From assembly GCF_963921235.1 (NCBI RefSeq), contig NC_086097.1, positions 18,354,001 through 18,418,000 of the forward strand: DNA of 64,000 nt. Direction: 5' to 3'. Each line of letters opens with the position of its first letter. Position 1 is the first letter of the stretch. Both the position numbers and the translations under genes were made by a program. Below, piece by piece: positions 57,680 through 62,895 of the stretch. The stretch comes from Mobula hypostoma. Taxonomy: Eukaryota. Below the pieces are notes generated by a model. That model was not told the origin of the DNA. It made no database searches and was given only the letters and a program-made list of their open reading frames with translations.

Positions 57680-59259
57680 TTCTGTAGCCTCTTTACAGCC
57701 TCAACACTACCTGCCCCACCACCTATCTCCCTATCATCCACAAACTTGGCCACAAAACCATCAATTCATCATCCAAATCATTAACATGCAATGTTTTAAG
57801 GAGCGGTCCCAACACCAACCCCTGCAGAAAACCACTAGTCACCAGCAGCCAACCAGAAAAGGCTCCCTTTATTACCAATCTTTGCCTCTTTCCAATCAGT
57901 CAATGATCTATCCATGCTAGTATTTTTCTTGTAATACCATAGGCTGTTATCTTGTCAATCAGCCTCATTCACAGTACCTTGTCAAAGGCCATCTGAAAGT
58001 TGAAGTACACAACATCTACCAATTCTCTTTTGCTTATCCTATTTGTTATATCCTCAAAGAATTCCAATAGGTTTGACAGGCAAGATTTTCCCTTAGGCAA
58101 ACCATGCTGACTTTGGCTTATTTTATCATGTACTTCTAAGTACCCTGAGAACTCATCCTTAGCAATCAATTTCAACATTTTCCCAAACACTGAATTCAGG
58201 CTACCTGGCCTATGTATAGGTTCATTTCTTCCGTCTCCCTCAGTTTCTTGAACAGTGGAGTGACATTTTCAATTTTCCAGTCCTGTGTCTATGCCAGAAT
58301 CTAGTGATTCTTGAAAGATCATTACTAATGCCTGCACAACCCTTCTTTTTTTACGCAGAGGGTGGTGAGTGCATACTGCTAGTGTCTTCCGCAGTGAAGG
58401 CTGATGGGAGATACTTATTCAGTTCATTCACCATATCCTTGTCCCCCATTACTACCTCTCCAGTGGTTTGGCTTGTTTTTAGTTGCCTTCTGCTGGTTTT
58501 TAAAAGCTTCCCAATTTTCTAACTTCCCATTTATTTTTGCTTTATTAGATGCCCTTGCTTTTGCTTTTATGTTGACTTTGACTTCCCTTGTCAGTCATGG
58601 CTGTGTCATCCTGCTTTTAGAATACATATTCTTCATTGGGACGCATCTATCCTGCACCTCCCTACCTGCTCCCAGAAACTCCAGCCATTGCTGTTCTCCC
58701 GCCATCCCTGCTAGTGTTGCCTTCCAATCAATTTTGGCTCGTTTTTTTCTCATGCCTCAGTAATTCCCTTTACTCCACTGTAATACTGATACATCAGACT
58801 TTATCTTCTCCTTCTCAAATTGCAGAGTGAATTCTATCATATTATGACCACTGCCTCCTAAGGGTTCATTTCCGTAAGCTCTCTTAGTCAATTTCCGGTT
58901 CACTTCACAACACCCAATCCAGAATGGCTGCTCTAAAAACCCATCTTGTAGGCATTCTACAAAATTCCCCTCTTGGGATCCAGCAACAACATAGATTTCC
59001 TAATCTACCTGCACATTGAAATCCCCCATATCACAACATTGCCCTTTTGACATATGTAGAAACATAGAAAACCTACAGCACAATACAGGCCCTTTGGCTC
59101 ACAGTGCTGTGTCAAACATGTACTTACTTTAGAAATTACCTAGGGTTACCCATAGCTCTCTATTTTTTAAGTGCATGTACCTATCCAGGAGTCTCTTAAA
59201 AGACCCTATCGTATCTACCTCCATCACTGTCGCTGGCAGCTCATTCCACGCACTCGTCA

Positions 59260-59700
59260 GTCAGTCAGTGGGAAAAGTCCCGAATCCGGGGTTGGTGGCT
59301 ATGCACCTCCATCTTCCATCTTGCAACAGCACCGAGTACAGCCTCTCCTCCAGTTTGTTCTCACTGGCCGCCTTGGCAATGCCTGCCGCCGCCCCCGCCA
59401 AACTCGAGCCGGAGGCCGTGTTGGCCTCCAGCCGCGGCCGCTTCTTCAAGCTCGGCCCTTCCTTAGGCGGAGGCCTTGGGCAGGTCCAGGCACACGGTGC
59501 AGCGCCCAAGTTCATCATGTCTCTTCTAACTGGGTGCATAGCATACGATTTGTAGATACATGGTGAGGCTTTAATCTCTTCCACGGAAGATGGCCGTTGG
59601 CTCACAAGAAGCTCATCTGCCCTTTGTCGGGTCTTGTTTATTTTTTTAGTCCTGCTGGGTGTCCTCACACCCTCCTCACCAGACTAAGTCCGGTGGGGGA
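59260..59700 (-). mobile_element. 441-bp retroposed element (RTE-like ends) carrying a captured host coding fragment
   Basis: TSD GCACTC(G/A)TCA at 59250-59259 and 59701-59710, inside a CR1 3' end that is continuous once the insert is removed. (ACTG)n tail. The 3' part translates QDGRWRCIATNP, resembling an RTE ORF C-terminus. Confidence 0.8.
59326..59503 (-). pseudogene. CYHR1: Circularly permuted fragment of CYHR1/ZFTRAF1 N-terminal coding sequence
   Basis: 59503-59468 encodes [11 protein letters not shown]. 59467-59326 encodes PKEGPSLKKRPRLE...[12 protein letters not shown]. Rejoining CTG T + GC TGC ACC restores [22 protein letters not shown], which I recognise from memory as the start of the CYHR1 RING region. 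Confidence 0.82.
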
Positions 59701-59947
59701 GCACTCATCACTCCCTGCTTAAAAAAACTTACCCCTGACGTCTCCTCTGTACCTACTTCCAACCACCTTAAAACTGCCATTTCAGCCCCGGGAAAAAACC
59801 TCTGACTATCCACACGATCAATACCTTTTCTATCTCCCATTGTAATTTGTACCACTGTTCAGATGCCTGTACATAACTCCTCTTGGGGTGTTTTTACCCT
59901 TGCAGTTTCTTATCTCTGCCCACAGGGATTCTACATCTTCCAATTCT

Positions 59948-60649: not shown

Positions 60650-61100
60650 TGAACCATACACATTACCTTTTGTAGGCTTTTCTGTATGAGGTGTTTCCAT
60701 ACCAGGCCATAATGCAACCAGTCAATATGCTCTCTACTACGTGTCTATGGAAGTCTGTCAGAGTTTTAGTTGACATGCCAAATCTTCGCAAACTTCTAAG
60801 AAAGTAGAGATGTTGCATGCTTTCATTGTAATTGCACTTGCATGCTGGACCCACGACAGATCCTTTGAAATGATAACACCAAGGTATTTAATTTTGCTGA
60901 TCCTCTCCACCGCTGGTCCCCCAGTGAGGACAGGCTCATAGATCTCCAGTTTCCTCCTCCTGAATTCAAAAATCAGCTCCTTAGTCTTGCTGACATTGAG
61001 TGAGAGGTTGCTGTGGCAGATTCAATCTCCCCTCTAAAGGTTGATTCATCACCACCTTTGATTCGGCCAGCAACAGCGGTGTCCTTGGCAAACTTAAATA
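60650..61100 (-). mobile_element. Rex1/Babar RT fragment
   Basis: FKFAKDTAVAGRI; LYFLRSLRRFGMSTKTLTDF...ESILTGCIMAWYG. Confidence 0.8.
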
Positions 61101-61384
61101 TTACCAGGATGTTCACCATGGTGTTGCCTGGATTCGAGATTAGCAATAAGGAGAGGTTGGACAAACTTGGGTTGATTTTCTTGGAGCAGCAATGCAGCAG
61201 GATAAAATTAAATAAAGTTAAGATAAATATAGATAGGATAGTCAGAGTCATTTTCTTAGGTGGGAAATGTCAAATGGCATAGTTTTATGGTGAGAGAGGC
61301 AATATTTAAGGAAGAGTTGTTAGGGATTTTTACACACAGGGTAATAGGTACTTTAAACATGAGACAATAAGATATATATATTTA

Positions 61385-62895
61385 TATTTGTCTGACAGAA
61401 GTATTTCAAATGTCATTAGAAACGGGAATGGTGCTGGAGGATTGGCGTATTGCTCATGTGGTTCCATTGTTTAAAAAGGGTTCTAAGAGTAAACCTGGCA
61501 ATTATCGGCCTGTGAGTTTGATGTCAGTGGTGGATAAATTGATGGAAAGTATCCTTAGAGATGGTATATATAATTATCTGGATAGACAGGGTCTGATTAG
61601 GAACAGTCAACATGGATTTGTGCAAGGAAGGTCATGTTTGACAAATCTTATTGAATTTTTTGAAGAGGTTACTACGAAAGTTGACGAGGGTAAAACAGTG
61701 GATGTTGTCTATATGGACTTCAGTAAGGCCTTTGACAAGGTTCCTCACGGATGGTTAGTTAGAAAGGTTCAATCGTTAGGTGTTAATATGGAAGTAGTAA
61801 AATAGATTCAGCAGTGGCTAGATGGGAGATGCCAGAGAGTAGTGGTGGATAACCGTGTCTCAGATTGGAGGACGGTGTGTAGCAGTGTGCCTCAGGGATC
61901 TGTACTGGGTCCATTGTTGTTTGTAATATATATTAATGATCTGGATGATGGGGTGGTAAATTGGATGAGTAAGTATGCAGATGATACTAAGATAGGTGGT
62001 GCTGTGGATGATGATGTAGGTTTTCAAAACTTGCAGAGAGATTTAGGACAGTTAGAAGAGTGGGCTGAAAGATGGCAGATGGAGTTTAATGCTGAAAAAT
62101 GTGTGGTTCTACATTTTGGTAGAACTAATCAAAATAGGACATACATATTAAATGGTAGGGCATTAAAGAATGCTTTAGAACAGAGGGATCTAGGAATAAT
62201 GGTGCATAGTTCCCTGAAGATGGAATCTCATGTGGATAGGGTGGTGAAGAAAGCTTTTGGTTTGCTGGTCTTTATTAATCAGAGCATTGAGTATAGGAGT
62301 TGGGATGTAATGTTGAATTTGTATAAGGCATTGGTAAGGCCAAATCTGGAGTATTGTGTATAGTTCTGCTCACCGAATTATAGGAAAGATGTCAATAAAA
62401 TTGAGAGAGTACAGAGGAGGTTTACTAAAATGTTGCCTGGGTTTCATCTCCTAAGTTACAGAGAAAGGTTGAACAAGTTGGGTCTTTATTCTTTGGAGCG
62501 TAGAAGGTTCAGGGGGGACTTGATAGGGGTATTTAAAATTATGAGGGGGATTGATAGAGTTGACGTGGTTAGACTTTTTCCTTTGAGAGTGGGAAAGATT
62601 CAAACAAGAGGACATGGGTTGAAAATTAGAGGACAAAAGTTTAGGGGTAACATGAGGGAGAACTTCTTTACTCAGAGTGGTAGCTGTGTGGAATGAGCTT
62701 CCAGCAGAAGTGGTTGAGGCAGGTTCTATGTTGTCGTTTAAAGTTAATTTGGATAGATATATGGACAGGAAAGGAATGGAGGGTTATGGGCTGAGTGCAG
62801 GTCGGTGGGACTAGGATAGGGTAAGAGTTCGGCATGGACTAGAAGGGCCGAGATGGCCTGTTTCAGTGCTGTAATTGTTATATGGTTATATGGTT
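61385..62895 (+). mobile_element. CR1 ORF2 3' half
   Basis: [43 protein letters not shown]; (TATGGTTA)n tail. Confidence 0.93.

Follow-up and report, generated by a model that had tools for sequence, protein, structure and literature searches.

A piece of ZFTRAF1 exon 1 in swapped order

The window, the whole stretch of DNA analysed here, covers 64 kb of contig NC_086097.1 of Mobula hypostoma. Its minus strand carries a 178-nt piece derived from the first coding exon of ZFTRAF1 (CYHR1), in which two neighbouring parts of the exon, designated block A and block B, stand in swapped order. The piece is situated inside a 5'-truncated copy of a short retroposon. The features of the locus are as follows.

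59129..59250, minus strand: host site, 3' coding end of a degenerate LINE-like repeat (..WNELPATVMEVDTIGSFKRLLD..), outside the element
59251..59255, minus strand: downstream copy of the target-site duplication GAGTG, read from the sequence
59256..59702, minus strand: retroposon copy, 447 nt, 5'-truncated, consensus 103-549, 94.0% identity to the consensus
59256..59325, minus strand: 3' module, from the alignment of copies, with an (ACTG)3 tail at 59256-59269
59326-59503, minus strand: ZFTRAF1-derived piece, both blocks, 178 nt
59326..59463, minus strand: block A, 138 nt of ZFTRAF1 exon 1, 128/138 identical to native exon 1 (L034 reverse strand, 1646-1783)
59464..59503, minus strand: block B, 40 nt of ZFTRAF1 exon 1, 39/40 identical to native exon 1 (L034 reverse strand, 1784-1823)
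59504..59587, minus strand: module 3, consensus 215-298, adjoining block B, from consensus and alignment
59588..59702, minus strand: module 2, truncated and head-like, matching its relative in a second repeat family (L024) at about 75-80% identity
59702..59706, minus strand: upstream copy of the target-site duplication GAGTG, read from the sequence

Read on the minus strand from 59503 to 59326, the piece gives first GCTGCACCGTG...GCCTCCG, coding for 11 residues, and then CCTAAGGAAGGG...CTCGGTGCTGT, coding for PKEGPS and onwards to a final run of 10 residues. Block B, the first in the element, corresponds to the codons of 14 residues in the native gene. Block A, the second in the element, reads EEGPS and onwards to the same kind of 10-residue run in the native gene, where it is placed directly 5' of block B. 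The swapped order of two CYHR1 blocks on the minus strand had been noted in a preliminary description of this DNA, and was confirmed both by reading the strand and by alignment with the native gene. The total of 178 nt given there also stood, while the block sizes of 36 and 142 nt did not; the alignment gives 40 and 138 nt, with the joint 4 nt further on. Block B extends to ...GCCTCCG(T>C)CTA when aligned with the native exon, and the internal swapped joint in the window is ...CCTA|AGGA..., block A beginning with AGGAAGGG.

Comparison of the 47-aa block with a large protein collection revealed one match, P0002, annotated at its source as zinc finger TRAF-type-containing protein 1 isoform X2 from a sawfish; 98% of the query aligns with it at 65% identity (E 3.8e-6 for the whole database). 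P0002 also carries the 25-residue motif that the preliminary description had given as the conserved start of the CYHR1 RING region. This match, along with the agreement between native exon and family consensus given below, upholds the proposed origin from ZFTRAF1/CYHR1. A search of the window's own genome with P0002 gave 102 matches, four of which represent the native exons on the minus strand of contig G000:C5, while the other 98 are element copies covering residues 43 to 113 at most. The native ZFTRAF1 is on a different contig of the same genome from the window.

Native coding exon 1 (reverse strand of the locus sequence L034) is unbroken from the ATG to ...GTC TAC CAG|gtacag and contains block A followed directly by block B, at ...GGTGCTGT|GCTGCACC.... 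It had been predicted that the source genome would hold a native locus with the blocks in the opposite order and adjoining at CTGT|GCTGC, and this was found, in agreement with the claim of an exact permutation with no base lost or duplicated. The captured stretch corresponds to the 178 nt at 1646-1823 of the L034 reverse strand. It begins 145 nt downstream of the ATG and stops 4 nt short of the exon-1 splice donor; the outer ends are therefore not exon boundaries, as had been supposed, but the distance of the junction to the true exon end is 4 nt and not 8 (...GTCTACCAG|gtacag). Microhomology, which had been suggested as a check, was not found between the outer ends of the captured stretch, where the native flanks read ..CTGG|AGGA.. 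and ..TCTA|CCAG... The stretch belongs to a first coding exon and shows a GC content of 0.71 and a CpG observed/expected ratio of 0.91.

The window copy and its landing site

The span of the window copy is common to 29 other loci. Its target-site duplication, GAGTG, could extend to as much as 9 nt with the last tail unit included, and base 59702 belongs either to the element or to the duplication. The adjoining host sequence at 59129..59250 shows similarity to the C-terminus of a LINE-like ORF of L024 (E 6e-6). This LINE-like repeat is the landing site only, with the window copy nested inside it. The idea of a mobile-element carrier is correct; the carrier is not the LINE-like repeat around the locus but a non-autonomous retroposon of 550-575 nt.

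Other retroelement remains were observed near the window copy, a fragment of an RVT_1 reverse transcriptase (E 1.5e-14) and an ORF matching PF09004 (E 2.8e-5), located at 61371-61805 on the plus strand and 60663-60887 on the minus strand. PF09004 is a Pfam family which often matches LINE-derived sequence. The ATGATGA just 5' of the insert (window 59504-59530) and the CTGA repeats in the tail (59256-59269) are C/D-box-like. A C/D-box snoRNA identity was rejected, as Rfam gave a weak match to the archaeal sR32 (E 0.6-0.9), which is probably due to chance.

Structure and copy number of the retroposon family

The 178-nt query gave 928 first-look candidates in the genome; the best 40 were scored, and each of them aligns over 176-178 nt at 93-100%. 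With at most 2 mismatches allowed, a 22-nt word spanning the swapped junction was found 738 times genome-wide, on many contigs, against 0 for the reversed control, which bears out the amplification suggested earlier. The aligned loci share a unit far longer than 178 nt. The family consensus is 549 nt and the longest copies have about 25 nt more at the 5' end, giving an element of about 550-575 nt. From 5' to 3' it is composed of GC-rich subrepeats, module 2 (76-214), module 3 (84 nt), the ZFTRAF1 module (299-476), and a 3' module followed by an (ACTG)n tail.

The consensus of the ZFTRAF1 module is identical to the native exon at 175/178 positions. This agreement and the conservation of the peptide in sawfish ZFTRAF1 indicate the direction of transfer, from gene to element. 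The three deviations from the exon occur in 51-58 of 59 copies; being found in nearly all copies, they either predate the spread of the family or reflect a later change in the gene. Module 3 and the other modules showed no match to the sequenced pieces of the ZFTRAF1 locus examined, in which only the 178 nt match.

The GC-rich part at consensus 1-75 (for example L002:1203-1277) is made up of subrepeats about 30 nt long, in which internal deletions are frequent (for example in L048 and L042). The truncated 5' ends of 7 copies cluster at consensus 61-75. Such a cluster could mean that the reverse transcriptase meets a strong stop here, or that some transcripts start at an alternative site about 8 nt upstream of an A-box-like motif. 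Thirteen nucleotides across the swapped joint are missing in 5 of 100 listed copies (...CCCAAGG|AAGGG..., for example G000:C1:57922467-57922671), a loss that amounts to a deletion between two AAGG repeats, either by recurrent slippage or as the mark of a subfamily. Two element copies in opposite orientation are placed less than 1 kb apart in L022/L025 (G000:C80:8177419-8178536).

Module 2 recurs at about 79% identity in a second, high-copy family, for which 1788 candidates were obtained; the best 40 were scored, and 40/40 cover the full query. This family, represented by the 340 nt of L024:1081-1420 (G000:C80:14671152-14671491), matches at 94-100% in all 40 scored of the 1788 candidates. It shares only module 2 with the element and diverges directly after ...CAACGGCCATCT. 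By eye, a hairpin in the shared module pairs despite changes on both sides (CACCGGAC/GTCTGGTG versus CACCAGGC/GCCTGGTG), hinting at a structured head RNA.

A search for papers naming both CYHR1 and SINE as whole words found none, and the family may already have a name in repeat databases.

Mobilization of the element

The 5' ends of 63 distinct copies are spread over consensus positions 1 to 422. A target-site duplication of at least 9 nt was observed in 9/24 truncated copies; over 200 shuffles of the flanks, the mean number of such copies was 0.375 and the highest 3. In the window and 70 loci (about 270 kb), all 54 of 54 (ACTG)n runs of at least 3 units follow the 3' module. Target-site duplications, scattered 5' truncation and a fixed 3' end with a tail together point to target-primed reverse transcription by a LINE. 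The element is a LINE-dependent, non-autonomous non-LTR retroposon which spread by this mechanism.

It does not encode a reverse transcriptase. The consensus has a longest frame of 122 aa, which includes the ZFTRAF1 piece, and no relatives of this frame were found in the protein collection among proteins of 67-214 aa. A coding function of this open frame was rejected as unsupported, since by a rough estimate its survival is about that expected under neutral decay at the present divergence. No partner LINE sharing the (ACTG)n tail was found in the approximately 270 kb comprising the window and 70 loci.

SINEs are described in the accessible part of the SINEBase account as short (<700 bp to 1 kb), interspersed elements of at least 100 copies with a head derived from a pol III transcript (PMC3531059). 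The element agrees with this in length and copy number, having a consensus of 549 nt and 738 junction matches on many contigs. As for the head, ARAGORN predicted 0 genes in L002, and 3 full-length copies compared with Rfam at E up to 1 were without a hit to tRNA, 7SL or 5S RNA; by eye only, TGGTCGAGTGG resembles an A-box and another stretch a D-arm. As no tRNA, 7SL or 5S head was detected, the element is called SINE-like and not a proven SINE.

A single capture in the founder

At non-CpG positions, the copies differ from the consensus by 2.23% in the ZFTRAF1 module, by 2.42-2.97% in module 2, module 3 and the 3' module, and by 4.16% in the GC-rich 5' part; the sample was chosen as best matches, so the absolute values are biased low. 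The divergence of the ZFTRAF1 module, being about that of the other modules, indicates that it is equally old. Loci picked by the upstream modules alone all carry the ZFTRAF1 module (30/30, 1 with an internal deletion). The motifs flanking the module are 175-200 nt apart in 208 places, and a spacing of 0-30 nt, as in a copy without the module, was found in 0 places genome-wide using exact motifs, which a diverged ancestor would escape.

A 76-nt query over the native colinear joint gave 46 matches among the best 40 scored of 1113 candidates, of which only the native gene is full and 45 stop at the joint. Since the colinear joint is present only in the gene among the scored candidates, there are no colinear retrocopies among them and no copies of more than one turn. 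Equal age of the modules, the lack of a module-free copy and the lack of a colinear copy together indicate one capture at the founder stage, before the spread. The ZFTRAF1 module almost certainly belongs to a family amplified after a single capture. It was taken from host exon 1 once, in the founder and before amplification, and no local event took place in the window; the view that the capture happened at the window locus is therefore replaced by one event in the founder of the family.

Comparison with known systems

Pseudogenes derived from circular RNA resemble the element in that host exonic sequence is found in non-colinear order, with the mouse copies apparently multiplied with a retroelement (PMC4897178). 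In mouse, 33 copies derive from one RFWD2 circle, are flanked by LTR sequence and have a junction from exon 6 to exon 2 (PMC4897178). These pseudogenes join back-splice sites, whereas both ends of the ZFTRAF1 piece lie inside exon 1 and off the splice sites; the carrier here is a short non-LTR element of more than 700 copies and that of the mouse case is LTR-flanked. The element is non-colinear in order, while it does not join an exon end to an exon start. According to Dong et al., non-colinear junctions can also arise without a circle (PMC4897178).

SVA_F1 with MAST2 exon 1 and the chimpanzee pt_SVA_D6 with STK40 exon 1, for which 84 and 94 copies are reported in the portion of the source at hand, likewise have a GC-rich first exon fixed and amplified in a non-autonomous non-LTR retroposon (PMC6139936). 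As far as that portion goes, their exons are spliced in, end at the exon 1 donor, and are 5'-terminal and colinear (PMC6139936). The ZFTRAF1 module, in contrast, is internal, permuted, not bounded by splice sites and, by the copy numbers given in that portion, about 10 times more numerous. A capture by splicing of the SVA_F1 type does not describe it, as the piece stops 4 nt short of the donor, is permuted and is internal.

Chimeras formed by LINE template switching are similar in having RNA copies fused head to tail in one orientation with joint target-site duplications, and double switches are documented (Gogvadze et al. 2007, PMC2104539, in the available sections). In these sections the chimeras join different transcripts and are mostly single-copy, whereas the ZFTRAF1 element contains two adjacent parts of one transcript, swapped, in a high-copy family (PMC2104539). 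The same sections document serial template jumping and chimeric retrocopies by non-LTR reverse transcriptases (PMC2104539).

MicroDNAs are a few hundred bp in length, most frequently 200-400 bp, and are enriched in 5'UTRs, exons and CpG islands, according to the accessible text of PMC7177960. The ZFTRAF1 piece is like them in its size class and in its origin from a GC-rich CpG island and 5' exon, with 178 nt, a GC content of 0.71 and a position in the first coding exon. It is unlike them in that microDNA and other eccDNA are known, within that text, as extrachromosomal molecules, and no microhomology exists at the ZFTRAF1 junction; the return of such a molecule into a retroposon of the germline, with later amplification, does not come up in that text.

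SINEs with simple-repeat tails, which rely on a partner LINE, are also short and non-autonomous, with a head, a body, a tail and hundreds of copies (PMC3531059). The element differs from them in that neither a tRNA, 7SL or 5S head nor, in about 270 kb, a partner LINE was detected. A body module from a host coding exon is also not among the body origins given in the part of the SINEBase description that was available (PMC3531059).

Assembly of the founder

The exact abutment at CTGT|GCTGC implies that a single break separated blocks A and B. With no more than two blocks present, permuting a circle and exchanging two neighbouring fragments give identical results. We infer that the source stretch was cut at three points and that two adjoining pieces were rejoined in swapped order, both in sense orientation. 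If a rolling or linear template were entered and left at random points, the same base would seldom be regained. The preliminary description had proposed a 178-nt circle opened once, and such a circle does explain the swap; it is not the sole reading, as swapping two adjacent fragments is equivalent.

The favoured reading, to which we assign a probability of roughly 55%, is that the swap arose at the RNA level while the founder was assembled by a template-jumping LINE reverse transcriptase. The enzyme would jump from template end to template end while building the founder. Serial template jumps by non-LTR reverse transcriptases are documented. In one variant, a ZFTRAF1 transcript would be nicked and fragment A would be copied first and then fragment B, giving a sense product X-B-A-Y with no circle involved; this takes three cuts and three joins, as does an opened circle. 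In the other, a small 178-nt RNA circle would be nicked once and copied end to end.

Several observations lean slightly towards RNA. Both blocks run in the sense direction of the element, which is built as a mosaic with module 2 also present in a second family. The piece stops 4 nt from the exon-1 end, which would fit a released or trimmed 5' exon and not random DNA breakage. In both the minimum-energy and the centroid fold predicted for the native 178 nt, the nick is situated in the middle of the hexaloop of a hairpin, GGUGC-UGU|GCU-GCACC, a point that was made post hoc and concerns a stem of only 5 bp. A nick site in such a predicted loop would also lean towards RNA. Compared with shuffled sequences, the complete 178 nt do not fold into a significantly more stable structure (z -1.85). 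A search of sequencing runs by sampled words found no RNA runs containing the element; at least half of the sampled words were present in 9 runs with three organism labels from three studies, and one of these runs may stem from the source sample.

Module 3 and the 3' module may have been separate RNAs or, alternatively, one older element that received the insert. An 11-bp complementarity exists between them, and in the predicted fold the resulting stem closes around the insert. Against assembly at the RNA level, this predicted flank stem would also fit an insertion into a pre-existing hairpin, and 178 nt of CpG-island origin fit small DNA circles equally well.

In such a scenario, a 178-bp double-stranded DNA circle (microDNA or eccDNA) from the CpG-island exon 1 of ZFTRAF1 was cut once and ligated at a break in the master copy of an already existing retroposon, which then spread it. 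This route, the one put forward in the preliminary description, we regard as possible but unlikely. It would account for the exactness of the swap and the single opening point, for outer ends that are not splice sites, and for a source with a GC content of 0.71 and a CpG ratio of 0.91 in a 5' exon; the 178 bp are near the reported size class, and the flank complementarity could mean that module 3 and the 3' module were once one hairpin of an older element. Such an older, insert-free element was found in 0 places against 208 with the insert, by exact motifs which a diverged ancestor would escape. The scenario also requires re-integration in the germline into exactly an active master copy. Sense orientation would be a 1-in-2 outcome of ligation, and an end 4 nt from the exon end is not predicted by random DNA breakage. 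Lack of microhomology at the junction counts against it weakly, since microhomology is seen at only a share of microDNA junctions, 37% in one study and 75% in another among those cited in the accessible text of PMC7177960.

Two adjacent DNA fragments of exon 1 might also have been joined in swapped order in the master copy with no circle formed, by end joining of shattered DNA or by replicative template switching. This demands the same three breakpoints as the other models. End joining can insert several fragments in arbitrary order, and a multi-fragment insertion of that kind would yield the swap. Both fragments being in sense orientation would be a 1-in-4 outcome, the source is on another chromosome-scale contig than any copy examined, and the empty ancestor was not found with exact motifs. 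Replicative switching is in addition not expected to restart at the exact base of first entry. Such a joining of DNA fragments is accordingly judged improbable.

Reverse transcription of a back-spliced ZFTRAF1 circRNA, giving a circRNA-derived pseudogene (Dong et al. 2016), is very improbable. It would share with the piece the non-colinear order and a 3' end 4 nt before the authentic donor CAG|GTACAG, and the first two bases of block A are AG, about 34 nt after a branch-point-like CTAAC motif. The true donor joined to the AG of block A would read ...TCTACCAG|GAAGGG. To arrive at the observed ...CCTA|AGGAAGGG, 2 nt would have to be deleted and one base substituted within 6 nt, against 2 differences in the remaining 172 nt. 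The start is also inside exon 1, 145 nt after the ATG, and the exon is unbroken from the ATG in the genome.

An assembly artefact at the window locus can practically be dismissed, and chance resemblance is ruled out, as the same junctions are found in hundreds of places on many contigs and the family consensus agrees with the native exon at 175/178 positions.

Significance of the element

Host exons picked up by retroposons and non-colinear pseudogenes of the circle type are known separately, and here both are combined. A short retroposon family carries a piece of a coding exon, swapped with single-base precision, as a fixed body module in more than 700 copies. With all four joints kept in hundreds of copies and a source gene agreeing at 175/178 positions, the family is a clean record of the assembly of an element.

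For annotation, an open frame of about 47-60 ZFTRAF1-like codons distributed genome-wide means false ZFTRAF1-like hits in gene prediction. Throughout the genome, element copies whose open frames reach 122-294 aa match as ZFTRAF1-like proteins, and they are a probable source of false gene models.

The family provides a test case for whether LINE reverse transcriptases build SINE-like elements in vivo by serial end-to-end template jumps, and for whether small circles of RNA or DNA can feed sequence back into the germline. Tentatively, and with assembly from RNA preferred, a mononucleosome-sized microDNA from the CpG-island exon of a housekeeping-type gene might have re-entered the germline via an active master copy and been broadcast to about a thousand loci. 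If true, this would be a natural record of the re-integration and amplification of a small eccDNA, and would add a new way for mobile elements to gain coding sequence from the host.
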